Assembly: GCA_029261065.1 (NCBI GenBank)
Contig: JAJDCB010000030.1
Location: 132,876 to 196,875, forward strand
Origin: Candidatus Omnitrophota bacterium
GTDB lineage: Bacteria; Omnitrophota; Gorgyraeia; Zapsychrales; Zapsychraceae
Length of the DNA: 64,000 bases
Direction of reading: 5' to 3'
Position 1 is the first letter of the stretch; each line of letters begins with the position of its first letter. Under the pieces are notes generated by a model. That model was not told the DNA's origin. It saw only the letters and a program-made list of their open reading frames with translations, and did not search any database. Shown piece after piece: positions 36,201-64,000 of the stretch. Both the position numbers and the translations under genes were made by a program.

Positions 36201-39200
36201 TTATTTTCTTCTCTTCATTAAAAAAACACTTCCGTAAGTATCAATTACCCACACACCGTCTTTGGCATTCGTCATAAATACAATACCGTTACCATATTTA
36301 ATGGAAGGGTCTTTAACCTCCTGTGTAAATGTTTTTTTGATTTGATCGTGGATATTGATATTGGCCATGGTCCATTGAAATGTCAGAAGACGATTCCCAT
36401 CTGTTGCCATAGGAATTAAACGCGTTTGAGGGTGTCCCATGATGGGTTCACCGGTTAAATTATTTGGAGGTCGAGGAATTTCTATTCCCGTGTATCCGGA
36501 AGGTTTATAACCAATCAGCCAAGTTTTAACGTTTGTCTTTGGATCATAACGTGATATGCCTGACTTAGGCATGTAGTAAGTAATCCTACCATCAGAAAAA
36601 ATTAATTTCTCAACATCTAGGTTTTCTTTAACACGTTGGGTTAATACTTTGCTTTTAAAATTGTATTGCCAAAGGCCATTTCGAGAAACATCTCCTGCGA
36701 TGCTTAACCATAGATTATCGTTTTGCTCATCAATGGCAATGGATTTAATTTGATAACTTCTTCCTGCATCTAAGGCGTTGTCAGCTGACAGATTGGTTGT
36801 TGAAGCAAGAATTTCATAATCCCAATTTTGAGTGTTAAGAGCAATCAAACCAGATTTCCCTTTCAGTCCAAACTTTTGATCTTTACTCAGCGGACCGACA
36901 CCGACATAAAGTAAGTCTTTATGACTGGCTAAGGATAAAATGTTATCAAAGGGGAAGGTGGTCGTTGTGTTTAATATTTTTGCTTGGTTTGCAGAAGTTG
37001 TAGGCTCTGTGACAAGGTAGTATCCCTGATAATTTGAACCAGATTTAAGGGCATGTTGAGAGGGAATAATTGTTCCTGTTTGTTTCTTAACGGCAATGAT
37101 ACCGACATTTGTGCCTACAAATATAAATTGATCATTGGTAGCCATGGCTGTAACTTCTAGCGGTTTTTTGGGTGAGCTTTGTACTTTTATAAACCCAACT
37201 TTACGAATTTTATCTGGATAATTTAATGGATACTCATAAAAGTTAACAAGATTTAACCCTTGACCTTGCACATGAATATCTACAGTGTAGAAGGTATTGT
37301 CATGAATAAAGAATTTTTCAAAGAAGAAGTTTGATCGTGTTTCAATTCTACCTAAACTGCTTTGCGCATCACCTAGTTGGTAGCCAACGCGAGTTGGCAT
37401 CTTTTCGAGTGTATAGTCTGAAACCGATTCATTTGATTTGCTTTTATTAGGAGATCCTGTTGTGTACACCTCATCAACAAGGGTATAGGCGCTACTACGT
37501 GCGCTAATGGCTCCATCTGTATTGTGTGATTGAGATGATTTTGGAGAGTTATAAGCTACAAATACGGCGGTACCTTGATTATTATGTCCTCTGACAACGC
37601 TATTTTTAAAAGAGTCGCTGCCATCATCTGGAAACATAGTACTGTAATCAACATCTTCGCCTAAGCGAGGTGGTTCTAACTCGGGACTCATTCGTAAATA
37701 GTAAGGGCTTTTGTCCAATTCAAGGTAAGCTTGATATTTGGGTTCGAAATTTTTTTTGACTCCAAGTTTAACTAATTTTAGTTCCAGTCGTCCTCGAAGA
37801 AGTTTTGCATCTGAAGAACTGTTTTTATAATTGTTTTGTTCAAGCACAGCGATCATTTTATTTAATGTTTGCACAAGCTGCGCCTTTTTTTTCGCTATTT
37901 CAAGAGCATTAAGATAAGGCCAAACATGCTGCCGCCAGGCAACTAAATTATTAGCATCATTGGATCGAATCATCCCCGCAAACACGGATTGCAAAGTTTG
38001 GATTAGCTCAGGGCTGTGATTCAAAGCGGCATGGGTAGTGGCTGTCCTTATTAAATTAGGTAAAATCGAGAGATCTTCTAGTTGCCAAATCGGATGGGAG
38101 TAAGGGAAACTATTTGTTAGGATTTGTAATTGAGCGATTGAAGATGCATTTTTTTCGTATGGTATTAAATGATTGAAACTGACAAGACGTACAAAATCGT
38201 TTGTGCTTTTAGTGTAAGCTTGAAATAATTTTTTTAATTTTGGATAAAGTCTATGATGGTTATCAATTGCTGTGCAATACAATAAACCTTTAAAGCGTGC
38301 GGGATGATAATCATTCTCCGTCTCAATAAATGCTGTGATGATATTTTTTAAAAATGGAACAATTTTACTCGAATCTTTAGGCTTGCTATCCATAATAAGA
38401 TCCTTCTTGTCGCGCCATGATTGCCAATAGGCTTTTGAATTAGTAAGATTTTTATAATGGTTTTTATAAAAGTCTTCTTGAAATTTAAGAAGCTGTTTAC
38501 GCATATTCATGAACTGATCATTGAGTTTTTTAACATGATATTCATCGTCATGAATTTGAACCGGTAAAGGCCATTCGCCACGTTCATGATAATAACGGCT
38601 TGTGTTGGGATACTTTATGGGATTCGGAATTTCAAGGCTAACTTCTAATCCTGTATCGACACGTCTGGCGTGTTCGCGTGCTAATTCGTAGTAAAGCGTG
38701 TAGCTGCGTAAAAAGGCGGAGACGGTACGTTTTTTCTTTTCTAAATTGTCATAAGAGGTATGAGGTCTACTGGAAGCTTTTTTTAAAATCGTTGAGGTGT
38801 CTCCCCAAAAACTTCTATTAACGTTAATTTTATTTTTTGACGGAAGAGTATTATCCGTTTTAGATTTGATCTGCACAACGGTGACGGCTTTCGTATTGCC
38901 TGGATGAAACGAGCTTGAGAGACCTGCTGTCATTCCACCAAATCCATCTGCTAACGTCCAACCCATCTCATACCAACTACGGGCTAACCAATAACGTGCT
39001 TTTTGTGTAGGGTTTAAACTAAAGGCAACCTCGGCATGTTGAATGGCTAGATCATGTTCGGCGCTTGATAAGAACAGAGGAACACGTTTGAGAAAGAGTT
39101 TGGCTTCCTCTACAGGGGAAATTTGTTTTACATCGGTTGTTTTAACATTAATAGCATTAAGGATTTTTTTATTTAAGATATTACGCGCTTTTTGAATATT

Positions 39201-40304
39201 TTGTGTTGGAATGTTAAATTTAATTTTTTTGGTTGAAAGATCTTTCATGGAATGAATATTAAGCGAGACGGCTAATTCCGTTTGTCCTTGAGTATATTTC
39301 AAACTTCCATCAAGTAATAGTAGAGATGACTTTAGCTGTTGATCCATCTGTGTTAATCGTAATTCTTCGTTGAGGTAACGAAGATGCTCTCGGTCTAAAA
39401 CTATGACTTGCGAAGATTTTGACAAATCTGCTGTCAGAAACATTTTTAAGGCTTCAATGTGGCCATCTAAGGCGACGGTCGGTTCTTCACTTTTAAAATC
39501 CAAAAAAGCAATATGATGTCTTTGGGGAGCTGGTGTTTTAAGAGTTTGATTCGTTTGGACAATAGCCTCGACAATCCAATCAAGATTTTTTTTCACATGG
39601 GCTTGTTCTAGAAGAACAGTATTTAATGTTATGGCTGTTGTACTTTCTACAAAACGTAAACGTATCATGGGTGGCTCAGATGTTGGCACTTTTTCTACAA
39701 TAAGCAAAACATCCGCCGATAATAAATTCCCTAACTTTGCCGATTGTTTTGGATCGATAAAGCCTCCAGCACTTAGAGATAGCTCATCAATGGCGTTCCA
39801 GATCTGTGTTCTTTCTAAAAGGACAAGATTATCGAGTTGAGAAAGTTGAACTTCTAGTAGATCGATGACGGGCTCATAGACATTGCGCTGATTTTGACCG
39901 GGGATGATGGCTATTTGAATGGAGGGAAGATTTGAAGGCGGGATGTAAGTACTTTCTGTTAACCCATCTTTGAATGGAGCTGCAGATTTAAATTCGCTAA
40001 TGTGTTGTATCTGTTGAGGTGTGTCATTGTAATTTGGTACTGTTCCAATAGTGCTTTTGGATAATGATGCAGGGTCGATCCCTCTTTTGCGCAATTCATT
40101 ATGGGATTTCTTTAGTTGCCTTTTATAATCCTTGGATTTCATCCATTGGGAATAATCGTTATAAAAGTCAGTCGAACCTTGAGATTTTGCCATCTTAGTA
40201 TTCCAATATATCCTCTCATAGTGATAAGGACTAGAAGGCCGCAGGAATATAACAAACATACCTGTGAGAATGAGGGAATAAATGAGTAATCTTTTTGCGT
40301 TCAT
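36201..40304 (-). CDS. Giant (1367 aa) secreted multidomain protein: N-terminal TM/signal, two CsgG/LpoB-like periplasmic modules, a long TPR/helical region and a C-terminal beta-propeller. It is a paralogue of 54800..57892.
   Basis: Hydrophobic N-terminus 'LLIYSLILTGMFVIFL'. The modules 'IQIAIIPGQN...LVLLERTQIWNAIDELSL' and 'HIAFLDFKSEE...VIVLDREHLRYLNEEL' fit a CsgG-like pattern. The C-terminal region 'ILSLASHKDLLYVGVGP...GKSGLIALN...NLWLSIAGDVSRNGLWQYNFKSK' is colinear with the C-terminus of the 1030-aa protein. Confidence 0.7.
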   Translation of the reverse strand: MNAKRLLIYSLILTGMFVIFLRPSSPYHYERIYWNTKMAKSQGSTDFYNDYSQWMKSKDYKRQLKKSHNELRKRGIDPASLSKSTIGTVPNYNDTPQQIQHISEFKSAAPFKDGLTESTYIPPSNLPSIQIAIIPGQNQRNVYEPVIDLLEVQLSQLDNLVLLERTQIWNAIDELSLSAGGFIDPKQSAKLGNLLSADVLLIVEKVPTSEPPMIRLRFVESTTAITLNTVLLEQAHVKKNLDWIVEAIVQTNQTLKTPAPQRHHIAFLDFKSEEPTVALDGHIEALKMFLTADLSKSSQVIVLDREHLRYLNEELRLTQMDQQLKSSLLLLDGSLKYTQGQTELAVSLNIHSMKDLSTKKIKFNIPTQNIQKARNILNKKILNAINVKTTDVKQISPVEEAKLFLKRVPLFLSSAEHDLAIQHAEVAFSLNPTQKARYWLARSWYEMGWTLADGFGGMTAGLSSSFHPGNTKAVTVVQIKSKTDNTLPSKNKINVNRSFWGDTSTILKKASSRPHTSYDNLEKKKRTVSAFLRSYTLYYELAREHARRVDTGLEVSLEIPNPIKYPNTSRYYHERGEWPLPVQIHDDEYHVKKLNDQFMNMRKQLLKFQEDFYKNHYKNLTNSKAYWQSWRDKKDLIMDSKPKDSSKIVPFLKNIITAFIETENDYHPARFKGLLYCTAIDNHHRLYPKLKKLFQAYTKSTNDFVRLVSFNHLIPYEKNASSIAQLQILTNSFPYSHPIWQLEDLSILPNLIRTATTHAALNHSPELIQTLQSVFAGMIRSNDANNLVAWRQHVWPYLNALEIAKKKAQLVQTLNKMIAVLEQNNYKNSSSDAKLLRGRLELKLVKLGVKKNFEPKYQAYLELDKSPYYLRMSPELEPPRLGEDVDYSTMFPDDGSDSFKNSVVRGHNNQGTAVFVAYNSPKSSQSHNTDGAISARSSAYTLVDEVYTTGSPNKSKSNESVSDYTLEKMPTRVGYQLGDAQSSLGRIETRSNFFFEKFFIHDNTFYTVDIHVQGQGLNLVNFYEYPLNYPDKIRKVGFIKVQSSPKKPLEVTAMATNDQFIFVGTNVGIIAVKKQTGTIIPSQHALKSGSNYQGYYLVTEPTTSANQAKILNTTTTFPFDNILSLASHKDLLYVGVGPLSKDQKFGLKGKSGLIALNTQNWDYEILASTTNLSADNALDAGRSYQIKSIAIDEQNDNLWLSIAGDVSRNGLWQYNFKSKVLTQRVKENLDVEKLIFSDGRITYYMPKSGISRYDPKTNVKTWLIGYKPSGYTGIEIPRPPNNLTGEPIMGHPQTRLIPMATDGNRLLTFQWTMANINIHDQIKKTFTQEVKDPSIKYGNGIVFMTNAKDGVWVIDTYGSVFLMKRRK

Positions 40305-40553: not shown

Positions 40554-40626
40554 TTAGGACATCAAACGAGGTTAAGGTGTTCGAAGCTGTGGTTAGGCTT
40601 GATGGGTATATAAGGAGGGCGTTATT

Positions 40627-41568: not shown

Positions 41569-41952
41569 ATGCTGGCATTTTCTGTAGAATTTAAATCAGG
41601 GGTTCCCATGTATGAGCAGGTGGTGTTTGCTGTGAAGAAAGCGATGATTAGTGGGCAATTAAGGGCTGGGGAGAAGTTTCCTTCGGTAAGAGAGATGAGT
41701 AAGGAATTAAAGATTAATCCTAACACCGCTCAAAAGGTTGTTGCTCATTTAGTTAGAGAAAAGCTCTTAACGATTGAACCGGGGAAGGGAAGCTTTGTTA
41801 ATGATTTTACGCGCGCCACAGATGAGAAGTTTGATGAAGTATTAGTGCCTCAAATTGAGCAGCTGGTTGTAGAGGCTAAGCGATTATCGATTGATCAAGA
41901 TGAAATCTTAAAGGCCATTCAAAATTTGTGGAATAAAGAGCAAGGAGAGTAG
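41569..41952 (+). CDS. GntR-family transcriptional regulator (short YtrA-like type)
   Basis: wHTH 'EKFPSVREMSKELKINPNTAQKVVAHLVREKLLTIEPGKGSFV', about 127 aa. It is followed by an ABC ATPase and permease, as in ytrA-type operons. Confidence 0.8.
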   Translation: MLAFSVEFKSGVPMYEQVVFAVKKAMISGQLRAGEKFPSVREMSKELKINPNTAQKVVAHLVREKLLTIEPGKGSFVNDFTRATDEKFDEVLVPQIEQLVVEAKRLSIDQDEILKAIQNLWNKEQGE

Positions 41953-41956
41953 AGAT

Positions 41957-42877
41957 ATGGCAAACGTCATTGAAATCCAGGGGTTAAGCAAAAGCTTTGC
42001 AAAGATTCAAACGGTAAAAGATGTGAGTCTCACGATTCCTAGGGGAAGTATTTTTGCTCTTCTAGGTCCTAATGGGGCTGGCAAATCGACAACGATTAAG
42101 ATGTTGATGAATTTTATTCAACCGAATCAAGGAAAAATATCAGTGTTAGGTGTTGATGGGCAGAAACTAGGGCCCAAACAATTAGAACAGATCGGTTATG
42201 TATCGGAAAATCAAGAAATGTTGCCGTGGATGACGGTGGATCAGTTTCTTAAATTTTGCAGCACAATGTATCCAACGTGGAATCAGGGGTATTGTCAGCA
42301 GCTAATGGAGAAGTTTCGCCTGCCGGGGAATCAAAAAATCAAAGATTTATCACGCGGGATGAAGATGAAGGTGGCTTTGATTTCATCTATCGCTTATCGT
42401 CCGCAATTACTTATCTTAGATGAACCGTTTAGCGGCCTTGATCCCCTGGTTCGTGAAGAGTTGATCACAGGGGTTTTAGATCTGACTGAAAATGAAAATT
42501 GGACGATTCTACTTTCTTCACATGATATGGAAGAGGTGGAGCGGTTAGCGGATCATGTCGGTATCATGAATAACGGTGAGCTTGTTTTGAATGAAGAAAT
42601 AGAATCTCTACAACAGCGGTTTCGTCAGATAGAGATCGTGCTAGAACAACCATCTGTCGGTACGATCCCCGAAAAGGATGACTTGTATTTGATAGAGAAT
42701 CAGGATCGTCTCATTCGTTTTGTTGATAGTCAATATCAAGCGCTGCAAAGGGAAGAACTCTATAAGCAACTATTTCCATCGTTAGTAAGCGTGAACGTTA
42801 AGGTGATGACATTAAGAGAAGTCTTTATTGCACTTGCCAAACATTATTCTATTCAAGGATTAAAGGCCGCCTCATGA
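41957..42877 (+). CDS. ABC transporter ATP-binding protein
   Basis: Walker A 'GPNGAGKST', signature 'LSRGMKMKVAL', Walker B 'LILDEP', 306 aa with a C-terminal extension. Confidence 0.9.
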   Translation: MANVIEIQGLSKSFAKIQTVKDVSLTIPRGSIFALLGPNGAGKSTTIKMLMNFIQPNQGKISVLGVDGQKLGPKQLEQIGYVSENQEMLPWMTVDQFLKFCSTMYPTWNQGYCQQLMEKFRLPGNQKIKDLSRGMKMKVALISSIAYRPQLLILDEPFSGLDPLVREELITGVLDLTENENWTILLSSHDMEEVERLADHVGIMNNGELVLNEEIESLQQRFRQIEIVLEQPSVGTIPEKDDLYLIENQDRLIRFVDSQYQALQREELYKQLFPSLVSVNVKVMTLREVFIALAKHYSIQGLKAAS

Positions 42878-42934
42878 AATGGGCGAGCCTCGTCATTTTT
42901 ATGAAAATAAAGAGACAACGACGGGAGAAATAGT

Positions 42935-44683
42935 ATGGCCATGGTTTTTCAAATATTGAAAAAAGATGTGTATCGATTACGGATGTGGATCTTTGTTTGG
43001 TTCGTTTTTCTGGGTTTGCAAATGGTGTTGGGGTTGAAGGCGACACATTTATCTATTCATAATTTATATTTTCAATTATCTTTGCCTATGATTTTTGGGG
43101 TTGTTGGTATCTCACAGATTTTGCTTATGGCCATTATCATTTCTTTTCTTATCCACGAGGATGCTTTAGTAGGTACAACATCTTTCTGGATGTCTCGTCC
43201 CATTGCTCGGTCATCTTTATTCATGTCAAAATTTACGTTTGTGTGTTTAGTACTAATCTTGCCTTCTCTTATTATGGAGATGATCGTATTGGCAGCTAAT
43301 CATTTTAGCTTCCAACTTCTTTTATTAGGTGTTCCTGAAATTTTACTAGAGAAATTAATTCTGATCGTTCCTTTGATGGTTTTAGCCTCTGTAACCATTC
43401 GATTATCACAATATACGTTTATTGGTATTAGTTTTTTGTTTGTCTATGTGCTCCTGATGCCAGGTATGGTACATAGTAGTATTTTTTTGCCAATATTTCG
43501 AACACACAGTTTCACACATTATGTGGATATCACTACATTTCATTTTTATTCGTTACGTTTGTCTTCTCAGTTAATTGCCCAAATTTTATTTTTAATACTA
43601 AGTATGATAGTACTCATTCATCAATTTTTGACGCGACGTACAAAAAGAACATTTTGTTTTATTGTTATTGCCTTTGTGATGGCTAATGGTGTTGGTTATC
43701 AATGGAAGATTGATTTTTTGAAAGAGAATTCCTCTAAACAAGTTCAAGAAGTTGTGGATCCCGTTATTAAGGTTTCTCTGGATTTAAATCATGTTTTTAT
43801 CGATAACATGCCTAGAGCGGGGGCCAAGGCTAAGAAGATAAAAGTTATCCAAGTTAAACAAGACGTTAAAGGTCTTTCAGACAAATATTTAACGTTTTTA
43901 AAAGAAACAAAGAATGCTCGCATGATTTACGATGATGGGTTCACTCTAACATCTGAAACAATGGGTGCCAGAATTTCAAAAGATTCCTATGGAGATTACA
44001 GAATTATGAAGTCTTTACAAATCGTTTTGAAAGATTATGAATTGATGAATCCTTTTGAGAAAGAATTTTCATATTCACATATTTTTCAACTTCCCGAACA
44101 AACATTTAATCTTCATAAAGGTAAAATTGGACGGTTTGAGGCGCGATTAATTTACGATATCTATGAATATCAACTAGACGTAGCCCTTTCAGCTAAAGCT
44201 TTTCAAAGATACTCTAATAATTCAGAAGATTTAGCCATTTTAGATGTAAACAAACGTCAGGATGGGGTTACGATTTTTGTTGTTGAGAAAAATAGTAACT
44301 TTTTATTCGATAGAAGCAAACCTTATGTTAGTCAAGGGTATCACGATATGCTGTCAGCTAATAGTTTTGAGCAAGTGTATTTACTGCGCAATAAACGTTT
44401 GAAACAAGCCTATTTGGCAGAAATATCTAATGATAGGATTGTTTTAAATCAGAATGTTATGCGGTCACATTCACAACGGATGACGCAAAAAATTAAACCC
44501 CTAGATTTTCTTCACATCAATGAACGCAATGAAGATATGCCTGTGATTGATGAGGATTGGTTGAAAGATGCTGAACTGATACGGTTACGTGCAAAGAAAG
44601 TTGGTTCTGTAGAGAAGGATGTTTCATATTCAAGATTTTACTTGCCAGCTCAATCAAGCGAGCTTAAGGCAAGGGGGAAGTAA
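42935..44683 (+). CDS. ABC-2-type transporter permease with a large C-terminal extracytoplasmic domain
   Basis: It has about 6 N-terminal TM helices and a ~330-aa soluble C-terminal region, and is co-operonic with the ATPase. Confidence 0.6.
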   Translation: MAMVFQILKKDVYRLRMWIFVWFVFLGLQMVLGLKATHLSIHNLYFQLSLPMIFGVVGISQILLMAIIISFLIHEDALVGTTSFWMSRPIARSSLFMSKFTFVCLVLILPSLIMEMIVLAANHFSFQLLLLGVPEILLEKLILIVPLMVLASVTIRLSQYTFIGISFLFVYVLLMPGMVHSSIFLPIFRTHSFTHYVDITTFHFYSLRLSSQLIAQILFLILSMIVLIHQFLTRRTKRTFCFIVIAFVMANGVGYQWKIDFLKENSSKQVQEVVDPVIKVSLDLNHVFIDNMPRAGAKAKKIKVIQVKQDVKGLSDKYLTFLKETKNARMIYDDGFTLTSETMGARISKDSYGDYRIMKSLQIVLKDYELMNPFEKEFSYSHIFQLPEQTFNLHKGKIGRFEARLIYDIYEYQLDVALSAKAFQRYSNNSEDLAILDVNKRQDGVTIFVVEKNSNFLFDRSKPYVSQGYHDMLSANSFEQVYLLRNKRLKQAYLAEISNDRIVLNQNVMRSHSQRMTQKIKPLDFLHINERNEDMPVIDEDWLKDAELIRLRAKKVGSVEKDVSYSRFYLPAQSSELKARGK

Positions 44684-44926: not shown

Positions 44927-45973
44927 ATGAGAAAAATATTACTACTTATTATTATGATGGCCATGTCTTTACCGGCTATGGCGCAGGAGATGACGGCACA
45001 GGAGATTGTGCAAAAGGCGAAAGAGAAATATCAATCTATGAAAAGTTACTCTTCAAAGGTTCGTAGTATCTCAGAGGGGGCTATTTCGGGGCGACCATTT
45101 AAGGATTCAAGGAAGGCCGAGGTTATAATGGCTCGTCCTAATCTCTATAAAATTACGTGGAGCAATGTGAAGCCTTATCAAGGGAAGGAAGATGTTGTTT
45201 GGAATAGTGGCGAAGGGGCTTATATGTATAGTTCTATGACGAACGGTTATTCTAAATATAATTCCGATGTTATGATTTTTGGTGCAGCAACAGGGATCTC
45301 TTCAAACGCCACATTAACGATGCCTTCAATCTTTTATGCCTTGCCGGAAATGCCGTCATTTTTTGATTCATTAAAAAAATTGGAATATTTAGGGGTTGAG
45401 AATGTGGCTGGCAAAGATTGTTATAAGTTAAAGGGCAAAACGCTTTATTCATCCGAGCATTATATCTGGATTGAGGTGGGGCAGTTTTTGTTAATTAAAA
45501 ATCAATATGTTCATGATGTTGATTCTTCTATGGCTGAGAAAGTTGAGATGAGCGACGAACAATATGCAGAATCTGTTCGGGCAATGGGGGTTGAGGTGAC
45601 AGATGAGAAAATTGCTTTTATGAAAAAAATGTCTGATTTTGGACAGGAAATGACAGAAAATGTAGAAATAGATTTGCAGCGTAAAGAAATTTTTACAAAT
45701 ATTAAGGTTGATGAGTCGGTTGAGAATTATAATTTTGATTTTAAAGTGCCAGCCAGTGCCAAACTAGAAACTAATTATTTTGATGCAATGTTTTCTGGTG
45801 ATATTGATTTGGATAAGCTCCAAGAATCTCAAGAAGCTCTCATGGAGATGATGGGCAAGGAAGACTTTGATCCAAAGGAAACTCAGAAAATAATGAAAGA
45901 TTTGGAAGATTCAATGAACGTAGATTCAAAGAATGAGAAAAATAAAGAACATATGCAAGATGATGCTTATTAG
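44927..45973 (+). CDS. Secreted LolA-fold-like (outer-membrane lipoprotein carrier/sorting-like) protein with an acidic C-terminal extension
   Basis: Signal peptide 'LLLIIMMAMSLPAMAQE' and an N-terminal pattern 'QEIVQKAKEKYQSMKSYSSKV...PNLYKITW' resembling LolA/LolB/DUF4367-type unclosed barrels. This is a weak assignment. Confidence 0.45.
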   Translation: MRKILLLIIMMAMSLPAMAQEMTAQEIVQKAKEKYQSMKSYSSKVRSISEGAISGRPFKDSRKAEVIMARPNLYKITWSNVKPYQGKEDVVWNSGEGAYMYSSMTNGYSKYNSDVMIFGAATGISSNATLTMPSIFYALPEMPSFFDSLKKLEYLGVENVAGKDCYKLKGKTLYSSEHYIWIEVGQFLLIKNQYVHDVDSSMAEKVEMSDEQYAESVRAMGVEVTDEKIAFMKKMSDFGQEMTENVEIDLQRKEIFTNIKVDESVENYNFDFKVPASAKLETNYFDAMFSGDIDLDKLQESQEALMEMMGKEDFDPKETQKIMKDLEDSMNVDSKNEKNKEHMQDDAY

Positions 45974-47863: not shown

Positions 47864-47898
47864 AGGAATTCATGTTTTGTAAAGAGGAGAATAATTAT

Positions 47899-54236: not shown

Positions 54237-54771
54237 AGTTGTCGTCACAAGTTTTATTTTAATCATTTCGTCATTTGTTGTTTCTTTTAGCAACGCTTGG
54301 GCGTTAAGCGTAGAAGAAGCGTACAGGGCCATTCCTCATCAAAGAACTCTTTTTAATGAAGATAAAGCTAAGATGTCTTTGACAGAGAAAGAATTCTTAG
54401 ATGAATTTTTTGCCCTAACAGACTTAGCTGTTATCCAACGTGTTGAATTGCTTTTATGGACCACAACCCATGGCAAGAAGGGAAAAAATTCAAAGAATTA
54501 CGATAATATCCTCTCGCAATTAGAAGATTTAAATGAGCCAACGAATTTGAGGGAAGTGCATCAATTAATTATTGGCGCCATCAAAGATCAGCAATCTTTT
54601 TATCAAGAGTGGGATAAACAATATAAAAGTCTCCCGTCACACCCAAAAGTTCGTAGCGCTAGTCAGAAATTACGACAAGCCTACAGTATTCTCATGCGAC
54701 TTTATCCACAGGAAGGCCCGCATAATAAGGCTGCCTTATTTGATCATTTGTGTGCGTTGGATTTTTTGTAG
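54229..54771 (+). CDS. Hypothetical secreted protein
   Basis: Signal peptide 'VVVTSFILIISSFVVSFSNAWA', 180 aa. Confidence 0.45.
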   Translation: MNRVVVTSFILIISSFVVSFSNAWALSVEEAYRAIPHQRTLFNEDKAKMSLTEKEFLDEFFALTDLAVIQRVELLLWTTTHGKKGKNSKNYDNILSQLEDLNEPTNLREVHQLIIGAIKDQQSFYQEWDKQYKSLPSHPKVRSASQKLRQAYSILMRLYPQEGPHNKAALFDHLCALDFL

Positions 54772-54799: not shown

Positions 54800-57700
54800 A
54801 TGTTAATGAAGTATTTTAAATTCAAAATTCCATTCTTTGTTGTGTGTGCCTTATTTTGCATGCAGAACGTATGGATTGCAAACTCAGAAGCGAATTTAGA
54901 TAAGGTCAGAACTGTTGCGATAGTTCCAGGGGTTCTGGATAAAGCTCCTTCCGAGTTGTTATTAGTTAAGATGGAGGAGGCTTTATCGCATTTAGATCAA
55001 GTGCGTTTATTAGAGAGGGCGCAGGTTTATAAGGTTTTAGATGAGCGAGAGCTTAGATTGTCCGGACTTGTCGATGATAATCGGGCGTTGGGTGGGTGGT
55101 TATCGGCGAGTTTGATGGTATTTGTTGAGAAGCTGCCGGATGCCCAAGATGCGGTGATTCGTATCCGTGTCGTTGAAAGTGAGACAGGAATTATTATGAG
55201 TTCGGCATTACACTTAGCTAGCGCGTTAACGCAGGATATTAATGTTGTCATAGAACTGCTACAAAAGGCGATTGATAAAAATAATGTGCCTTTAGAAGAT
55301 AGGGTGTATGTAAGTGTATTAGGGTTTGAGAGTGAAGAGTTAGGAACATCATTAGATGGTCTTGCGCGTGCTTTGACGTTATTTGTAACACATGATTTAG
55401 CGAGTTTGGATAAGGTTATTGTTCTTGAACGGGAGCAGGTAGCACATCTTAATAGTGAACAAGAGTGGATGGGGTTAAATTTGAGGTTAAAGGGTTCGGG
55501 TGTTTTGATAGAGGGGGGTTTAAGTTATTCAGTGGGAAAGAAGGAAGAGGTAAATGTGGATGTCGTACTAAGGCCCACTGGTGGCGGGGACAGGCAACAA
55601 ATGTCTTTAGTGATGAAGCCAAAAGATGTTTCTTTGTTGCGCCAAGGGCTTCTTGACTTTGTTCGTCAGAAATTAGATATACAGTCTTCAAAAGATTTTA
55701 CTGCTAATCCGAAGCAAGAAGGGGCGATGTTTTTATCCCAGATTCCATTTTTGATGTCAATCGGTGACTATGAAACAGCTGTTCAAAATGCAGAGGTGGC
55801 TTATGCGTTATTAGGGAATCAAGAGTCAAGGTATTGGGCTGCGCGAGCCTGGTATCTTTTGGGAAGAACGTTTGCTAAAGATTTTAAAACGACATTGTGG
55901 CACCCTGGTTGGTCTAATGTTGGGTATTCTATAAGTGTCGCCCATATTAAAAGAGAAGATTTTTATGTTAATATCACGAGAGACAGTAGTATATCAAGAT
56001 CTGGTTATTCCTCTGCAAATCCGAATCGAGGTTATGATTTACCAAATGACGATAAGGTTCGCGCCTTGTTAGCTATCAGTCGGTGTTATAACTTTATCCA
56101 TCAGATGCTTCGTGTGCATATAGATCAATTTGCACAAGGCCAGGTAACGGAGATTGAGTTTCCAGATCCTCTCAAATCTAAAATACTACCAACATTGCCT
56201 GTTTATGGAAGGGATGATCGTAAGTTGACATATGAGGTATTGGGCGAATCAGATAGTTTTATGAAATATTACGAACAGATTATTGATATGGAATTAGAGC
56301 AGCATAAAATGTTGAGCACCTTTTACGGTAAACATTACGATCATTCAAAGAAAGCAAAATATTTGTATTGGACATCTTGGATGCGAAGAAAAAATACACT
56401 TAACCGTTATTATGGAAGTAGTGATGAGTATCTTATGGCGTATATGGTCGATGCTGTTAAAAGTTTTATATTGCTTCCTAAGGATGATGATATAAAGTTT
56501 GATGCCTTAAGAAAAATGATCAAACCTCATGGTCGTATTTTAGATAAGCAGAAGAAACTTTATGGGGATTTGCTTCATCATAAAAGCCCTGATGCCCGTA
56601 AAATGGGGAAAATAATGTTTAAGTTGCTTGAGCGCAAAGAAGAATCTCGGGGGACTTGGTCTCAGGGAAAAACGCAGCGTAGTGGTGCAAAGAAAACAAC
56701 AGCTGCTTCTGTTTCAAAGAACAATAAAAGCTTTGGCAAATACAAAATTGATAGTTTTGGTCCTATTGGAAAGCAGGTCTCAATGGAGTCGCTCTATATT
56801 AACTGGAGCAATTCTCTTTTTGGTGAGGGAAAGCCCATCATGAATAATATTTGTATGGATGGAACAGCCCTTTATTATTTTGAAACATTTAAAGTTTCTA
56901 AAACGTCATTCAAAGTTGTTGCCCATAAACATGATTTTTCAAAAAGTAATGATTATCAAAAATTAGGTGAGGCCATTATTAATGTGCGTAAAACAGATCC
57001 AAAAATGATAACGGCATGTGCGGTGGGTAAGGATTATGTTTATGTTGGGACACCTGGGGGATTAATTGTAGTCCCAAAGGTTCCTGATGAAAAATTAAAT
57101 GTTGTTAAAGTTTTTACGGAAGATAATGGGCTTGCTGATAACAGAATTCTATCGTTAGCTTATCATGGCGAAAAAGTTTATATAGGTGTTGGGCCAACGT
57201 TTGCCAATGAATATGGGTGGGTAGGAAAGTCAGGTCTTGTTGAATTCGATCCAAATAATGCTCGATATAAATTAATCGCAACAAACGGCGCGTTTGAAAA
57301 TGTGGATGGACTTAACGGCGGAGGAAATTATCAAATCTCTGCCATATTAACAGATAAGAAGCGCAATTGTCTTTGGTTAGCTGTTACGGCCAATCAAGAT
57401 CGAAGTGGTATTTGGCGTTATGATTTAAACACAAAGGAGATTAGTCTTGTTGCTAAAGAACATTCAGGTATCAAAGCAATGGCGTGGAGCAGAGCGGATA
57501 TTATTTATCCTTTGTATAACGTAGGGTTAGTTCATTTTGATCCAGACACAAAGAAGAAAACATGGCTTGCCTCAAATGTTAATGCTGAATGGCATAAAGC
57601 TTATAATCAAAAAACTCCTCTTGGAGTAACAGGTGAGCCAACATTTGGATTTCATACAGCACGCTTATGGCCCATGGCCTATGATCAAGATTATGTTTTT

Positions 57701-57892
57701 GCCGTAACTCAAAGGGGGAGTATTTTTGAATTATATAGCAAAAAAAATCTTAAAACCAACTCCAATGGCATTAGCCAAAACGCCGTACCCAGACCAAATT
57801 TTCTAACAAACATTAGCCATGTGATTCATAATCCGTTTGGAGTTTGGGTGGTTAATGATAATGCTCAAGTTTATTTGTTGAGGAGGAAATAA
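54800..57892 (+). CDS. Large (1030 aa) secreted protein, a paralogue of the 1367-aa protein, with two CsgG-like modules, a TPR/helical region and a C-terminal beta-propeller
   Basis: Signal peptide. 'VRTVAIVPGVLDKAPSELLLVKMEEALSHLDQVRLLERAQVYKVLDEREL'. 'VYVSVLGFESEELGTSLDGLARALTLFVTHDLASLDKVIVLEREQVAHL'. The C-terminal region 'ILSLAYHGEKVYIGVGP...GKSGLVEFD...CLWLAVTANQDRSGIWRYDLNTKE' is colinear with the 1367-aa protein. Confidence 0.7.
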   Translation: MLMKYFKFKIPFFVVCALFCMQNVWIANSEANLDKVRTVAIVPGVLDKAPSELLLVKMEEALSHLDQVRLLERAQVYKVLDERELRLSGLVDDNRALGGWLSASLMVFVEKLPDAQDAVIRIRVVESETGIIMSSALHLASALTQDINVVIELLQKAIDKNNVPLEDRVYVSVLGFESEELGTSLDGLARALTLFVTHDLASLDKVIVLEREQVAHLNSEQEWMGLNLRLKGSGVLIEGGLSYSVGKKEEVNVDVVLRPTGGGDRQQMSLVMKPKDVSLLRQGLLDFVRQKLDIQSSKDFTANPKQEGAMFLSQIPFLMSIGDYETAVQNAEVAYALLGNQESRYWAARAWYLLGRTFAKDFKTTLWHPGWSNVGYSISVAHIKREDFYVNITRDSSISRSGYSSANPNRGYDLPNDDKVRALLAISRCYNFIHQMLRVHIDQFAQGQVTEIEFPDPLKSKILPTLPVYGRDDRKLTYEVLGESDSFMKYYEQIIDMELEQHKMLSTFYGKHYDHSKKAKYLYWTSWMRRKNTLNRYYGSSDEYLMAYMVDAVKSFILLPKDDDIKFDALRKMIKPHGRILDKQKKLYGDLLHHKSPDARKMGKIMFKLLERKEESRGTWSQGKTQRSGAKKTTAASVSKNNKSFGKYKIDSFGPIGKQVSMESLYINWSNSLFGEGKPIMNNICMDGTALYYFETFKVSKTSFKVVAHKHDFSKSNDYQKLGEAIINVRKTDPKMITACAVGKDYVYVGTPGGLIVVPKVPDEKLNVVKVFTEDNGLADNRILSLAYHGEKVYIGVGPTFANEYGWVGKSGLVEFDPNNARYKLIATNGAFENVDGLNGGGNYQISAILTDKKRNCLWLAVTANQDRSGIWRYDLNTKEISLVAKEHSGIKAMAWSRADIIYPLYNVGLVHFDPDTKKKTWLASNVNAEWHKAYNQKTPLGVTGEPTFGFHTARLWPMAYDQDYVFAVTQRGSIFELYSKKNLKTNSNGISQNAVPRPNFLTNISHVIHNPFGVWVVNDNAQVYLLRRK

Positions 57893-59421
57893 TGATGAAA
57901 AAAGTTGTGACTTTATTACTCATTCTCTGCTTTAGTCAAATGGTATATACAGAAGTATCAATATCTAATGTTGAAGTTGTTAAGGATGCGACGTATGAAG
58001 AGGCGCTAAGGTATATTGAAGAAGAGGAGTATGAGAAGGCTGTGGAGATACTCAAAGAAGCTATTGTGGACGACGAAGATAATGCTTCGTATCATTCCTC
58101 TATAGGTTGGGCTTATCATTCCCTTGAGAAAACGAATAAAGCAAAAGAACATTATGAAAAGGCAATTGAATTGGATACGGAAGATTATATAGTTTATTTT
58201 TATCTTTCGATCATGTCTAGTAATTTTGAAGAAAGGGTTGGTTGGCTTAAACGGGCTGCAAAGAGGTTTCCTAGACAACCTGTGTTTTTTGAATCTTTGT
58301 TTATTTATTATGAAGCTGAGGCGATCGCAGAAAGTTACAAAGGTAATACGGAGGTTGCGATCAAACTTTTGCAAGAGTATAGAAGTGTGGTTGATCATTA
58401 TTTTAAGACAATTGAAAGTCAATCTGAACCTTTAAGTGATGCTGTTCAAGTTATTAATTCAGGTATTAGAGAGCGTGTTGATCAATCGTTGGGTTTGGAA
58501 GAAATGTTTAAAAAAGACGCGGAACAGTATAAGGCATTGGGAGAAGCTAATCGTTTAAGAAATACTGGTGAGCTTCAGGATGCGATCAAGCATTATGATA
58601 GTGCCCTTGGAATCAGTGATGCTGTTGATCATTTTGTTTATAACAATCGTGGCAAAATTTATCAACAGTTAGGAAATCTTGATCAAGCTTTGGCAGATTT
58701 TAATAGCGCTATTGAAATAAGTCCCAAGGACTCTGTATTTATTAGGCACCGCGCCCAAGTGTATTTAGCGAAAGGGGATGAAGAGAAAGCTTTTGAAGGT
58801 TTTCAATCGGTTATTGATTTAGATCCTGAATCAGGAAAAGGATACGTTGTTAGAGGATGGGCGTACGAAACTTTAGGGCAGTTTGATAAAGCGATATTAG
58901 ATTATAGCAAAGCCATAGAGATTAATGATAAGCATGTTTATAACGCGTATAGTAATCGTAGTAGAGCGTACAGAAGAATAGATAGGTTGGAGGAATCGAT
59001 GGTGGATATTAAGAAAGCGATTGAACTTAACCCGGGGGCGTCAGTTTATTTCACGGATGTTGGTTTTATTTATTTGGATCAAGGAAAGTTTGAAGAAGCC
59101 ATTGAGGCGTTTAATAAAACAAATTTGGATTTTCATAAGTTTGCTAATTCCTATTTCGGACGGTATTTAGCTTTAAAGGCAAAGGGTCATATTGAGCAAG
59201 CCAATGACGATTTAAAGAAAGTTCGCGAGCTTGATATTGGTTTAGCGGAAAACACCGTTATAACAGCCAAACAATTTGAGAAGGCGAATAGGATACGGCA
59301 AGCCTTACAGTATATGAATTATGCCTTTGAAATCAATCCAGAGTTGGAAGTTAAGTATAAAGATTTTGTGGATGTCTTAAAATCAAAATTAGTTGATTCG
59401 AAGGAAGGGAGAGTGGAATGA
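57892..59421 (+). CDS. Secreted TPR-repeat protein (tandem paralogue 1)
   Basis: Signal peptide and multiple TPR units ('ALADFNSAIEISPKDSVFIRHRAQVYLAKGDEEKAFEGFQSVIDLDPESGKGYVVRGWAYETLGQFDKAILDYSKAIEIN'). Confidence 0.75.
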   Translation: MMKKVVTLLLILCFSQMVYTEVSISNVEVVKDATYEEALRYIEEEEYEKAVEILKEAIVDDEDNASYHSSIGWAYHSLEKTNKAKEHYEKAIELDTEDYIVYFYLSIMSSNFEERVGWLKRAAKRFPRQPVFFESLFIYYEAEAIAESYKGNTEVAIKLLQEYRSVVDHYFKTIESQSEPLSDAVQVINSGIRERVDQSLGLEEMFKKDAEQYKALGEANRLRNTGELQDAIKHYDSALGISDAVDHFVYNNRGKIYQQLGNLDQALADFNSAIEISPKDSVFIRHRAQVYLAKGDEEKAFEGFQSVIDLDPESGKGYVVRGWAYETLGQFDKAILDYSKAIEINDKHVYNAYSNRSRAYRRIDRLEESMVDIKKAIELNPGASVYFTDVGFIYLDQGKFEEAIEAFNKTNLDFHKFANSYFGRYLALKAKGHIEQANDDLKKVRELDIGLAENTVITAKQFEKANRIRQALQYMNYAFEINPELEVKYKDFVDVLKSKLVDSKEGRVE

Positions 59422-60929
59422 GAAAAATAGCTTTGTTATTAATAATTTTAGGCGTCAGTCAAATAGCCTTGGCACAGGTCGATGTGCTAGAAGTTGAAGA
59501 AGTTAAGGATGCGATCTATGAGGAGGCGGAAAATTATTTCGATGACGAAGAGTATGAGAAGGCTGTGGAGATACTTAAAACTGCCCTCACGGAGAATGAA
59601 AACAATGCTTCATATCATGTCTTAATAGGTGGAGCTTATTCATTACTTGATAAGAAAGATGAAGCTAAAGAACATATTGAGCGGGCCATTACGTTGAATC
59701 CAGATGATATGGAGGTTTATCTCAGTCGATTTTTTTTAACAGATGACTTTGAAGAACAGATGGACGGGCTTAAACAGGCTATAAAGAAATTTCCTAGGGA
59801 ACCTGCGTTTTATGCTTTAGCGTTTACTTTCTATAAGGCTAATGCTATTTCTGAAGGCTCTATTGGAAATACAGACATTGCCATAAAATATTTGGAAGAA
59901 TATAGAAGTTTAGCTGAGAATTATTTCAAGGTCATTGAAAGTCAATCCGAACCATTAAGTGAAGAAATTCAATTATTAAATTCAATGACTAAGGAAAGTC
60001 TAGAGACAATGGGGGCATGGGTAGCCAGGTTGAAAAAAGATGGGGAGCAGTTTAAGGCATTGAATGAAGCCAATCGTTTAAGAGATAAGGGCGAGTTAGA
60101 AGAGGCTATAAAACATTATGACATGGCCATTAACATAAGTGATGCGTTTGATCATTGGATTTATAACCATCAAGGTCATGTTTATAAGCAGTTAGGAAAT
60201 TTTGATCAAGCGTTGCTAGTTTTTAGTAAAGCTATTGAAATAACTCCTCAGGACGCTTCTTTATATAGGCACCGTGCTCAAGTTCATTTAGCTAAAGGGA
60301 ATGAACAAAAAGCCTTTGAAGATTTTCAAGCGGCTATTGATTTAGATCCTAAGGATGGGCGAGCTTATATCTACAGGGGATTGGTGTATAAATCTTTAGG
60401 GCAGTTTGATAAAGCGATATTGGATTTTAGTAAGGCTATAGAAATTAATGATGAGTATGCTTATGCAGCGTATGGTAACCGCAGTGAAGTGTATAGAAGA
60501 TTAGATAAATTCGAGGAGTCGAAGGTAGATATTAATAAAGCCTTTGAACTTAAACCAGAGGCTGTAGATTATCTTATGAATGTTGGCTTAATTTATCTAG
60601 ATCAAGGAAAATTTGAAGAAGCCATTGCAGAGTTTAACAAAAGAATTAATGATGATTTGCACTTTGCTTCTGCTTATGTAGGACGATATTTTGCCTTAAA
60701 AGCAAAGGGCGATATTTCACAAGCTCAAGATGATTTAGAAAAAGTTCGAGAACTCGACATAGGTCAAGCGGAATATATAGTAGAAATAGCAAAACTATTT
60801 GAAAAGGCGAATATGATTCACAAATCTTTAAAATACATGAATTATGCCATTGAAATCAATCCGGAGTTAGAAGTTAAGTACGAAGATTACATAGATGTAT
60901 TAAAGTCTAAATTAGCTGATTCAAAATAA
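59418..60929 (+). CDS. Secreted TPR-repeat protein (tandem paralogue 2, about 50% identical to paralogue 1, ATGA overlap)
   Basis: It is colinear with the previous ORF along its whole length ('...KYMNYAIEINPELEVKYEDYIDVLKSKLADSK' versus '...QYMNYAFEINPELEVKYKDFVDVLKSKLVDSK'). Confidence 0.75.
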   Translation: MRKIALLLIILGVSQIALAQVDVLEVEEVKDAIYEEAENYFDDEEYEKAVEILKTALTENENNASYHVLIGGAYSLLDKKDEAKEHIERAITLNPDDMEVYLSRFFLTDDFEEQMDGLKQAIKKFPREPAFYALAFTFYKANAISEGSIGNTDIAIKYLEEYRSLAENYFKVIESQSEPLSEEIQLLNSMTKESLETMGAWVARLKKDGEQFKALNEANRLRDKGELEEAIKHYDMAINISDAFDHWIYNHQGHVYKQLGNFDQALLVFSKAIEITPQDASLYRHRAQVHLAKGNEQKAFEDFQAAIDLDPKDGRAYIYRGLVYKSLGQFDKAILDFSKAIEINDEYAYAAYGNRSEVYRRLDKFEESKVDINKAFELKPEAVDYLMNVGLIYLDQGKFEEAIAEFNKRINDDLHFASAYVGRYFALKAKGDISQAQDDLEKVRELDIGQAEYIVEIAKLFEKANMIHKSLKYMNYAIEINPELEVKYEDYIDVLKSKLADSK

Positions 60930-60941
60930 ACGGAGGTAAGG

Positions 60942-61433
60942 ATGAAAGGACAAATGAAATTTGGATTGTTATTATTAGCCGCATTTTTAGGAGGCGTGGT
61001 TTCAAATCTAATTTTTAAACCGACAACATTAAGCGCCGATGATTTGCGTTTGTTGCGCACTTATCATTTTCAATTGTGGGATAAATCGGCAGATAGAATG
61101 ACGGCTGAGCTTTTAACTCCTAAGGGGAATGGGGCGATTATGAATTTAAATGGGAGTGATGGTCGGGAGCGGGTGCAATTAGGTTCTTATGCTGGCAATT
61201 ATTCTAAGGCTGAGCGGGGACAACCTTTTATTGGGTTGTCTGATAACTCTAACCGTTTACGTATGCTTCATCGGTTGGCCGGTGGCAACGAGGCTCCCGT
61301 TATTATTTTTAAAGATACTAAAAAACGTGATCGTATTGTTTTTGGTTTAGCTCTTAACGGAGAGGAAGAAGAACCTTTTTTTGCTTATTTTGATAATGAT
61401 GGAAAGAAACATATGGTGTTTGGGTCGTATTAG
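60942..61433 (+). CDS. Hypothetical secreted or membrane-anchored protein
   Basis: Hydrophobic N-terminus 'FGLLLLAAFLGGVVSNLIF', 163 aa. Confidence 0.45.
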   Translation: MKGQMKFGLLLLAAFLGGVVSNLIFKPTTLSADDLRLLRTYHFQLWDKSADRMTAELLTPKGNGAIMNLNGSDGRERVQLGSYAGNYSKAERGQPFIGLSDNSNRLRMLHRLAGGNEAPVIIFKDTKKRDRIVFGLALNGEEEEPFFAYFDNDGKKHMVFGSY

Positions 61434-61458
61434 TGATTACAGAGAGGGAGGTTTAATT

Positions 61459-61710
61459 ATGCATCCATTGGGAGTTTTTACACCTATACTATTAATAGTC
61501 AGCTTTGCTCTTTTGATCTGGGCGGCTTGGGAAATTTTTACGTCAAAAAATGATGTGGCTTGGAAAGCATTGTGGATATTGGAAATGATCGTGTGTTTTT
61601 ATATTTTACCGTTTGGGGCATTGATAGGGGTTGCGATATATTTTTATGTGGGAAGAAAAGGAGTCAAACAACAGCAGAGCAGGACTTATGAGAAGGAAGA
61701 TTTGCAGTAG
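61459..61710 (+). CDS. Small two-TM membrane protein of the PLDc_N type (cardiolipin synthase N-terminal-like)
   Basis: 'FTPILLIVSFALLIWAAWEIFTSKN...WILEMIVCFYILPFGALIGVAIYFYVGRKG'. The start was set at the ATG with RBS gggagg. Confidence 0.45.
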   Translation: MHPLGVFTPILLIVSFALLIWAAWEIFTSKNDVAWKALWILEMIVCFYILPFGALIGVAIYFYVGRKGVKQQQSRTYEKEDLQ

Positions 61711-61749
61711 GTGTGTCTTTTAAAAATGTATCAAATTAAGGGGTTGGTA

Positions 61750-62781
61750 ATGAAGAGGTTTATAACGATAGCGTTATTTTGTTTGTTAAATGTAACTTGT
61801 TTTATCTCGATATCGAGTGGGGCCGCGGTAGATCCGATGTATGTGGATGAGATGCAAAGGAGCGAGCTTAAGAATCAGGTGAAGGAGTTATTAGTTGATG
61901 AGGATTTTATAAGTTTGGAACATATGGCCCAAGATTTTCGAGATAACAAAGTGTTGTTTCCTTCGGGGAGTTGGAAATTGGATTATTATTATCGAGGATT
62001 ATCAAAGGCGTTGGGGGATGTGAATCATGAGAGTTATAAGTCTTATATGCAAATACTAAAAAGGTGGGGGAAGGCTTATCCAAAATCTGTGACGCAAAGG
62101 ATCGTATTGGCGAATCTTTATTCAGATTATGGATGGTTTCATCGAGGTTCGGGATATTCTGAAACAGTCACGGATGATGGGGCTAAAAAATTAAAGAAGT
62201 ATCTTTCCCTGTCACAAAAGGTGTTAAAGAAGGTGTCAAAATCTGAAATCAAAGATCCGTATGTGTATACAACATGGGTTTTAGTGGGGATGGGTTTAAG
62301 CTTATCTAAGGAAGAGTTGTACGACATCGTTGAACAAGGCAATAAAGTTGAGCCAACCTTCTACGCTACTTATTTGTGGATGGCCGAGGCGATGTTACCT
62401 CGATGGGGTGCCGCATTTAATGACATTTATGAATATGTGGATTGGTTGGATGATCGGATACCAAGTGAGCAAAAGGATGAGATTTATACGCGTGTCATGA
62501 TAAAGGTTTTTGCCGTGGTAGGTGGTCGGGTTTATAAAGATGTTTATGAGTTTCCTTGGGAAAGAACCAAAAATGGATTTTTACAATTAAGAAAAAAATA
62601 TCCACAAGGATTTTGGATTCTAAATCAGTTTGCTTTGTTCTCCTGCATTCTTAAAGACGATGATGTGGGCTATGGTCTCATCAACGAAATTGGAGACCTC
62701 TGGAATCAAGACTCCGTAGATGTCTGGCGATCAGCAAGTTATTTTTTAAAATGGCAGTTGTATTATGAGTCTTATAAATGA
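61750..62781 (+). CDS. Hypothetical secreted protein (paralogue of 47899..49125)
   Basis: Signal peptide. 'LFPSGSWKLDYYYRGL', 'ANLYSDYGWFHRGSGYSETVTDDG' and 'MLPRWG' are shared with the paralogue. Confidence 0.55.
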   Translation: MKRFITIALFCLLNVTCFISISSGAAVDPMYVDEMQRSELKNQVKELLVDEDFISLEHMAQDFRDNKVLFPSGSWKLDYYYRGLSKALGDVNHESYKSYMQILKRWGKAYPKSVTQRIVLANLYSDYGWFHRGSGYSETVTDDGAKKLKKYLSLSQKVLKKVSKSEIKDPYVYTTWVLVGMGLSLSKEELYDIVEQGNKVEPTFYATYLWMAEAMLPRWGAAFNDIYEYVDWLDDRIPSEQKDEIYTRVMIKVFAVVGGRVYKDVYEFPWERTKNGFLQLRKKYPQGFWILNQFALFSCILKDDDVGYGLINEIGDLWNQDSVDVWRSASYFLKWQLYYESYK

Positions 62782-63431
62782 TGACGAACCGTAGAATAAG
62801 ATATAGCAGCATTTTAATTATTTCATTATCAGTTGTTTTTGGGTCTTTTTATTCTCGTCAGAGTACAGTTGCCGCCAATCAAGAAGATTATTTGCAGCTT
62901 TGGGCTAAAAATAGGGCGTTGATGTTTTCTTTGCATGCTGAGGGAAAAAAGGTGGAGTCTTTGAAAGTGGCTGAAGATAATTTTGAGTTTATCAAACAAT
63001 ATACAAATAGAGAACATCCTAAGTATATGATGTCCTTGCATCATGTGGCCTACATTAATTATGATTTACGACGTTATGATATTGCTGAGAAACAATTTTT
63101 GGAAACACTTAAGATGTATCAAGATTACGAACGTTATAGGGACAGTTTAGCGCCTAACGAGAGGAAAAAAGTTGGCCTTGGATTCGGCTCAGGCAATGAG
63201 CAGGTCCTATTAGGATTAATCTATCAAGCAACGAACCGTCCAGCCTTAGCAGAAGAATACTTGTTAGCGTCGATTAAATATTATGAAGGCAGATATCCGG
63301 AGTATGCCTGGTACTATAAAGACATTCTATTTATTATGGCTGATTATTATTCAAACATGGGACGCATGGCGAAATCTCGAGAATACATTAAGAAAGGGAA
63401 AGCTCTAAAGGCTCAAAAGAAAGGGAGTTGA
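62778..63431 (+). CDS. Secreted TPR-like protein (paralogue of the next ORF)
   Basis: 'SLKVAEDNFEFIKQYTNREHPKYMMSLHHVAYINYDLRRYDIAEKQFLETL...PEYAWYYKDILFIMADYY'. Confidence 0.5.
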   Translation: MMTNRRIRYSSILIISLSVVFGSFYSRQSTVAANQEDYLQLWAKNRALMFSLHAEGKKVESLKVAEDNFEFIKQYTNREHPKYMMSLHHVAYINYDLRRYDIAEKQFLETLKMYQDYERYRDSLAPNERKKVGLGFGSGNEQVLLGLIYQATNRPALAEEYLLASIKYYEGRYPEYAWYYKDILFIMADYYSNMGRMAKSREYIKKGKALKAQKKGS

Positions 63432-63440
63432 TATTATATT

Positions 63441-64000
63441 ATGATCATTTTATTGAGAAGATTAACAATTTTCATTCTTACCATTATGTTATTAGTTTTT
63501 GTTGTTCGTTCGGGCTCAACAAATAAAGAGAAGATGTCTATAGGTCAGGAATGGCATCAAAGAAAACAGAATATGTTTGCCTTGCACAAAGAAGGACAGA
63601 AAAAGGCTTCACTGAAGGTTGCAGAAGACACTTTTGAATGGATCAAACAATTTGCAACTCAAGAAAATTTGATTTATGTGGAATCTTTAAATCATATCGC
63701 GTGGTTGTTGTTTGATTTAAAGCGCTATGAAAAAGCTGAGAAACTTTTTTTAGAAGTCTATCCTTTGTATGAAGCGATCGAAACGCTCAATCTAACATTG
63801 CCAGAAGATAAAAAGGTTCGTATTCCTAGTGTTCATGGCCTTGGAAATACGATGGTATTATTAGGAAATGTTTATGAATATACAGGCCGTTATGAGTTAG
63901 CGCTAGAACAGTATTTAGATGCCAAAGACTATTTTAAGGCCAAATTGCCTGATCATGCGTGGTATTACAAGATCATACTCAATAATGTTTCTAATATGTA
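63441..64000 (+). CDS. Secreted TPR-like protein (paralogue of 62778..63431), 3' truncated by the window edge
   Basis: The frame is open to the window end. 'SLKVAEDTFEWIKQFATQENLIYVESLNHIAWLLFDLKRYEKAEKLFLEVY...PDHAWYYKIILNNVSNM' is colinear with the previous ORF. Confidence 0.5.
   Translation, partial: MIILLRRLTIFILTIMLLVFVVRSGSTNKEKMSIGQEWHQRKQNMFALHKEGQKKASLKVAEDTFEWIKQFATQENLIYVESLNHIAWLLFDLKRYEKAEKLFLEVYPLYEAIETLNLTLPEDKKVRIPSVHGLGNTMVLLGNVYEYTGRYELALEQYLDAKDYFKAKLPDHAWYYKIILNNVSNM

Follow-up and report, generated by a model that had tools for sequence, protein, structure and literature searches.

The region from 36201 to 64000 of the window (the whole 64-kb stretch of DNA analysed) is a lineage-decorated copy of an ancient operon that is common to many diderm phyla. 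This compact operon has exported proteins as its only products, export being concluded from the single N-terminal signal or anchor segment that each core protein carries. With moderate confidence, its products can be assigned to a periplasmic sensing or scaffolding complex; more specifically, a probability of about 0.45 is given to an extracytoplasmic complex for envelope or periplasmic sensing and signal relay, rather than a pore or an adhesin. The strongest functional evidence, which is not visible from the window sequence alone, lies in 344-aa units fused to sigma-linked kinases, together with the ECF sigma genes adjoining related loci, and it points to signalling. The core genes and the large module proteins are as follows.

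45992..46813, plus strand: exported 273-aa protein, the first core gene, always directly upstream of the 344-aa gene
46829..47863, plus strand: central 344-aa protein with an SPase-I-type signal, the module as domain 1, and domain 2
49146..52787, plus strand: 1213-aa protein with a signal, module, TPR, BNR-like region and Reg_prop beta-propeller
52784..53602, plus strand: 272-aa protein with two to three TPRs after a signal and the module (aa 29-154, nt 52868-53245)
53577..54236, plus strand: membrane-anchored thioredoxin-like protein with a CPAC motif (Pfam Redoxin 1.3e-3, below cut-off)
54229..54771, plus strand: 180-aa helical protein ending in FDHLCALDFL, by alignment the C-terminal half of a ~393-aa fused protein
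54800..57892, plus strand: 1030-aa protein with a signal, two modules, a long helical stretch and a propeller-like C-terminus
36201..40304, minus strand: 1367-aa protein anchored by an N-terminal hydrophobic segment, with two modules, helical sequence and a propeller-like C-terminus

The module shared by five of these proteins is an alpha/beta domain of the TolB-N/CsgG-N/PelC/LpoB fold. Pfam CsgG (PF03783, gathering cut-off 20.8 bits) was matched by the 344-aa (34.4 bits), 272-aa (28.0), 1213-aa (23.7) and 1367-aa (22.2) proteins; the 1030-aa protein scored 14.4 bits, below the cut-off. Each match in the window proteins is confined to positions ~5-105 of the 210 positions of the model. A local HMM, built from four copies and searched against the six-frame translation of the 64 kb, recovered the 1030-aa protein independently (2e-13) and found no further convincing copy in that translation, the best other E-value being 0.2. 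With the HMM iterated on homologous sequences of other genomes, significance was also reached by the second copy in the 1367-aa protein (aa 265-381, 3e-14) and by that in the 1030-aa protein (aa 171-276, 6e-10).

An earlier note on this DNA, whose open reading frames are all present where it had placed them, had proposed a CsgG/LpoB-type fold for the module, and this is borne out by significant profile and structure similarity, with an AF2 model of pLDDT 85 as support for the fold. The motif strings that it quoted occur in the 272-, 344-, 1367- and 1213-aa proteins. Its count of eight module proteins has to be lowered to five proteins with seven sequence-supported copies, and its placing of the module right after the signal peptide fails for the 1367-aa protein, where the first module begins ~130 residues in. 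The structures closest to the module include several ring formers (CsgG, 12.6; a Vibrio LPHT-ring protein, 11.5; PelC, 11.2; TraT, 9.0).

In the 344-aa protein the module forms domain 1 (aa 51-174, nt 46979-47350), followed by the highly conserved domain 2 (aa ~195-336). The earlier note had counted two modules each in the 1367-, 1030- and 344-aa proteins, which is correct for the first two; domain 2 of the 344-aa protein was rejected as a second copy on sequence (HMM i-E 0.046, hhalign probability 10%). In the model, domain 2 is an alpha/beta domain with a topology similar to that of the module. Homologues of this protein, with labels from several phyla, are 45-78% identical among the best matches, and some annotation sources name it 'CsgG/HfaB family'. 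Searches with the 273-aa protein yielded no functional clue.

The 1213-aa protein comprises the module (aa ~30-168), TPRs (aa ~195-340), a stretch without assignment, the BNR-like region (aa ~600-790) and the propeller (aa ~1020-1210). Of the two propeller types named in the earlier note, Reg_prop was matched in Pfam at 30.7 bits (cut-off 20.4), along with TPR families, and BNR_2 (5.6e-5) was matched below its cut-off, with three S-x-D-x-x-x-W motifs (aa 610, 726 and 772). The family profile matched the propellers of Bacteroides hybrid two-component sensors (4a2l, 1.7e-27 over aa 1029-1210; 3v9f; 3ott), to whose ligand-binding periplasmic domain the C-terminal ~200-300 residues of the family are homologous, as well as PorZ (5m11, 4.8e-7) and CpoB (5.5e-7). 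Unlike these sensors, the 1213-aa protein has no transmembrane segment after the propeller, no histidine kinase, no receiver and no AraC output; the propeller ends a soluble exported protein, the sole hydrophobic segment of which is N-terminal. The C-terminus of the 1030/1367-aa family is more distantly related to the same sensors.

The 1030- and 1367-aa proteins are paralogues, with 25-28% identity across the N- and C-terminal regions. Their modules lie at aa 52-156 (HMM 5e-17) and aa 171-288 in the 1030-aa protein, and at aa 136-241 (nt 39582-39899, HMM 2e-21) and nt 39162-39512 (the second copy given above) in the 1367-aa protein. By hhalign (probability 81%, P = 1e-5), the C-terminus of the 1030-aa protein is similar to the Reg_prop region in the 1213-aa family; CsgG aside, this protein had no match in Pfam or PDB, and searches with the central regions of the large proteins yielded no functional clue.

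The gene order 273-aa, 344-aa, 1213-aa, 272-aa and thioredoxin-like recurs in MAGs labelled Acidobacteriota, Planctomycetota, Methylococcaceae, Woeseiaceae and Alphaproteobacteria. The full operon was found in loci L002, L007, L009, L010, L011 and L013, and a partial or variant form in L015, L045 and L087. Orthologues of the 1213-aa protein occupy an equivalent position in seven other loci (36-57% identity), and the 272-aa protein (Pfam TPR_6 5.5e-8, module HMM 2.5e-28) has orthologues following that of the 1213-aa protein in each of the loci just named except L010. In L006, L016 and L086, proteins resembling orthologues of the 1367-aa protein come directly after the 273/344-aa pair. The CPAC protein, whose gene start was taken as called in L001, aligns with the N-terminal half of the ~393-aa proteins that end the operon in the six loci with its full form. 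It and the 180-aa protein, which bears its own signal peptide in the window, are thus halves of one protein encoded by a single gene in other genomes; the gene is split in L045 too.

Species-representative genomes were scanned with a degenerate pattern, which gave 513 tblastn-confirmed stretches. Of 62 independent loci, 53 have a module protein of at least 600 aa no more than 10 kb from the 344-aa homologue, and in 52 of these 53 the two are on the same strand; the clustering of module-bearing genes expected by the earlier note is therefore seen in related genomes, distant ones included. The 344-aa family comprises 598 clusters (50% identity, E<=1e-30), has members in Gammaproteobacteria and forms two to six tandem paralogues in Verrucomicrobia.

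The operon is accompanied in the window by the following genes.

34986..36185, plus strand: exported 399-aa protein, Pfam Thioredoxin (7.6e-11) at the C-terminus, aa 306-381
41569..44683, plus strand: short GntR-family regulator (127 aa), ABC ATPase (306 aa) and 582-aa membrane protein; Pfam GntR and ABC_tran
44927..45973, plus strand: exported 348-aa DUF2092 (LolA-like) protein, Pfam DUF2092 1.2e-9, 38.3 bits against a cut-off of 21.2
47872..49125, plus strand: exported 417-aa protein between the 344- and 1213-aa genes, DUF4034 just below cut-off
57892..60929, plus strand: tandem exported TPR proteins of 509 and 503 aa, with strong Pfam TPR matches
60942..61433, plus strand: single-pass membrane protein of 163 aa that belongs to the conserved operon only occasionally
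61711..64000, plus strand: 356-aa paralogue of the 417-aa protein, 217-aa TPR protein and a partial tandem paralogue, the partial ORF leaving the window

The GntR, ABC and 582-aa genes are linked to the cluster in the lineage of the window. In the closest relative (L087) the trio lies directly upstream of the 273/344-aa pair, and in L016 an ABC ATPase homologue is located upstream of the cluster; the 582-aa protein has seven hydrophobic segments. The 348-aa DUF2092 gene, which was not found beside the cluster in other loci, is an accessory gene specific to this lineage, and the 417-aa gene is likewise absent from between the 344- and 1213-aa genes in other loci. The 163-aa protein had no Pfam match and has homologues inside the operon in L003/L009 and L045 (5e-30 to 7e-30), and TPR proteins similar to the tandem pair flank the operon in L007 and L013. 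The 217-aa TPR protein is 39% identical to the partial ORF after it, which on the Logan contig L089 is a 206-aa gene followed by three small genes of no named function. The 399-aa thioredoxin-domain gene lies just outside 36201-64000.

Much of what the earlier note had described around the module genes stands: the tandem TPR paralogues (60% identical), two other paralogue pairs (DUF3592 pair, 50%; 417-aa and 356-aa proteins, the latter at 61711-62781, 30%), two thioredoxin-fold proteins (the C-terminus of the 399-aa protein and the CPAC redoxin-like protein), a LolA-fold-like protein (the DUF2092 match) and a GntR/ABC module (Pfam matches).

The relation of the family to signalling proteins was surveyed for fusions among the best 150 representatives of the 344-aa family. 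Eighteen of these 150 are long proteins with the whole 344-aa unit at the C-terminus, namely 16 Ser/Thr kinase fusions, one ECF sigma fusion and one caspase fusion. Between the unit and the kinase or sigma part lies a transmembrane helix; in the kinase fusions the unit is thus two-domain, extracytoplasmic and C-terminal to the membrane helix, which describes the family, the window protein standing alone. An anti-sigma zinc finger (zf-HC2) was detected in three of the eight kinase fusions scanned (E<=1e-3). In locus L088 an ECF sigma gene is followed by a zf-HC2/kinase/344-unit gene, a 359-aa protein and a 1479-aa WD40 protein that contains two modules. Flanking ECF sigma genes are present at 33 of the 81 related loci, and a ~200-aa single-pass membrane protein is present in 29 of the 81, the usual order being sigma, membrane protein, large protein(s) and 344-aa gene. 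The sigma association is strongest in Verrucomicrobia-type loci; among loci of the operon type of the window it was seen in L015 only, and no ECF sigma, anti-sigma factor or kinase is encoded in the 64-kb window or in the readable 2.4 kb beyond.

Pairs made up of an ECF sigma factor and a Ser/Thr kinase are a recognised regulatory class (ECF43, ECF59-62, ECF217) (PMC7826278, PMC8999054), and in receptor kinases the extracytoplasmic domains have roles in ligand binding or in controlling where the kinase is located (PMC13147305). Relatives of the 344-aa protein resemble this class, being the extracytoplasmic domain of zinc-finger kinases adjoining ECF sigma genes, and stand-alone copies adjoin sigma and candidate anti-sigma genes. 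The window protein differs in being a free periplasmic protein, and it is also unlike RseB, the fold of which is LolA-like. In the literature, no paper was found describing a 344-aa-type extracytoplasmic domain in ECF-sigma-linked kinases.

Since the central protein is elsewhere the outward-facing domain of sigma-linked kinases, envelope sensing is likelier than adhesion or secretion. In such a complex, the propellers and TPR arrays of the large proteins may capture a periplasmic ligand or partner, for which an envelope glycan would be the leading candidate, and the large proteins would dock to one another and to the 344-aa protein via the shared module. The 344-aa protein might then pass the state of the complex to a membrane regulator through the invariant charged sheet surface of domain 2, the regulator probably being an anti-sigma factor or a kinase in most lineages, and the membrane-anchored thioredoxin-like partner may keep a component reduced. 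In the window only the short GntR regulator with the ABC transporter is linked to the cluster. ECF sigma genes often adjoin the genes they regulate, and the neighbourhood is therefore silent on whether the complex is a sensor or a regulated product. The 344-aa unit on kinases could, moreover, localise them rather than sense, and the ring-forming neighbours of the module (CsgG, PelC, TraT and flagellar ring proteins) fit a structural role equally well.

Such a role, somewhat unlikely in our judgement, would be that of a periplasmic or outer-membrane-proximal scaffold, in which the modules form a homo- or hetero-oligomeric ring and the TPRs and propellers serve to guide an envelope polymer, or to anchor it, for example an exopolysaccharide, an LPS-linked glycan or a fibre. 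Besides the ring formers among the nearest structures and the compactness of an operon encoding exported proteins only, the combination of module and TPR recalls that of PelC with PelB, the TPRs gave weak matches, all far below cut-offs, to the PgaA, PrsT and PilW models, and the PorZ-like and BNR-like propellers suggest glycan binding. The module shares with CsgG and HfaB the signature of a beta-strand, PF/PG and LxERxxLxxxxxE. However, the window proteins give no match to that half of the CsgG model in which the membrane-spanning hairpins lie, and they lack the lipoprotein cysteine, the defining lipid anchor of CsgG: no lipobox cysteine is present at the cleavage position in them or in 22 homologues, the N-termini of both ending in A-x-A-type sites. 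PelC/PelB and LpoB/CpoB are lipoproteins too, whereas the window proteins have SPase-I-type signals and carry module and TPRs fused in one chain. In the window the module is joined, unlike in CsgG, to TPRs, helical regions, propellers or a second unrelated domain. No curli or holdfast partner genes lie near the cluster, Pfam finding no CsgA/B/E/F or HfaA/D among the 23 main ORFs of 34986-63431 and none recurring in the 81 related loci. No pel or peptidoglycan synthase genes are near it either, and genes for an outer-membrane barrel, polymer synthase, glycosyltransferase or substrate are not conserved beside it in the 81 loci. A scaffold also leaves the repeated fusion of the whole 344-aa unit to kinases and a sigma factor unexplained.

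There is a small chance that the proteins coordinate cell wall and outer membrane in the manner of TolB, CpoB or LpoB, modules and TPRs binding peptidoglycan synthases or Tol-like partners and propellers binding peptidoglycan or lipoproteins, and that they replace Lpo activators which these phyla lack. TolB itself consists of an N-terminal module and a propeller, and the window module corresponds to its alpha/beta domain of the TolB-N fold at the N-terminus; CpoB, as given above, and TIGR02795 (YbgF, ~1e-7, below its cut-off) are matched by the TPR region, and the very high conservation of the 344-aa protein across phyla would suit a universal envelope partner. In the window proteins, however, 200-700 residues of TPR or helical sequence separate module and propeller, the propellers are Reg_prop/BNR-like rather than PD40, and no PD40, TolB_N or LpoB (PF13036) match was obtained in Pfam; nor are they lipoproteins with a long disordered linker, as LpoB would be. 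No tol or pal genes occur in the window or in related loci, and penicillin-binding protein, Tol-Pal and division genes are not conserved beside the cluster. The family is also found in Gammaproteobacteria, which have Lpo activators, and the tandem paralogues of Verrucomicrobia argue against a single housekeeping partner.

The proposal of the earlier note, lineage-specific and recently expanded surface proteins for adhesion or prey/host interaction, is highly improbable, the cross-phylum synteny having largely refuted it: the 28 kb do hold several paralogue pairs and many exported proteins with repeats, and the source organism is uncultured, but core order and sequence are conserved across phyla, the paralogues of the window are only 25-60% identical and the duplications therefore old, the G+C content of the island does not differ from that of the housekeeping block, and neither adhesin nor toxin nor dedicated secretion-system domains came up in Pfam scans of the window proteins, whose only feature of this kind is a hydrophobic signal or anchor segment at the N-terminus. 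The other part of that proposal fares better. No description of this envelope apparatus was found in the literature, and it is fair to call the gene cluster a previously uncharacterised one, the adhesion, prey and host roles being left without support.

Returning to envelope sensing, the 344-aa family and its module partners may, as a tentative and broader suggestion, constitute a widespread, undescribed envelope-surveillance system of diderms. In this system, the CsgG-N/TolB-N module would serve for docking, and the two-domain periplasmic protein would pass on a signal, from a glycan or from envelope damage, to ECF sigma factors, via a separate anti-sigma protein or, when fused, directly via a Ser/Thr kinase. 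Its role, in MAGs labelled Verrucomicrobiota, Planctomycetota, Acidobacteriota, Omnitrophota and some Proteobacteria, would be comparable to that of RseB/RseA or cell-surface signalling, with other parts.

The 344-aa family is large and its central protein unusually conserved, yet it is annotated only as 'CsgG/HfaB family' or hypothetical, and the former label wrongly implies a curli-type pore. If the signalling reading is true, an input domain would be named for a set of ECF-sigma-linked Ser/Thr kinases, which occur in ECF-sigma-rich phyla where almost no signals are known, and the question of how these bacteria monitor their envelope or periplasmic glycans would become concrete and testable. 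Even if it is wrong, structural and genetic studies have a defined target in the cross-phylum operon.

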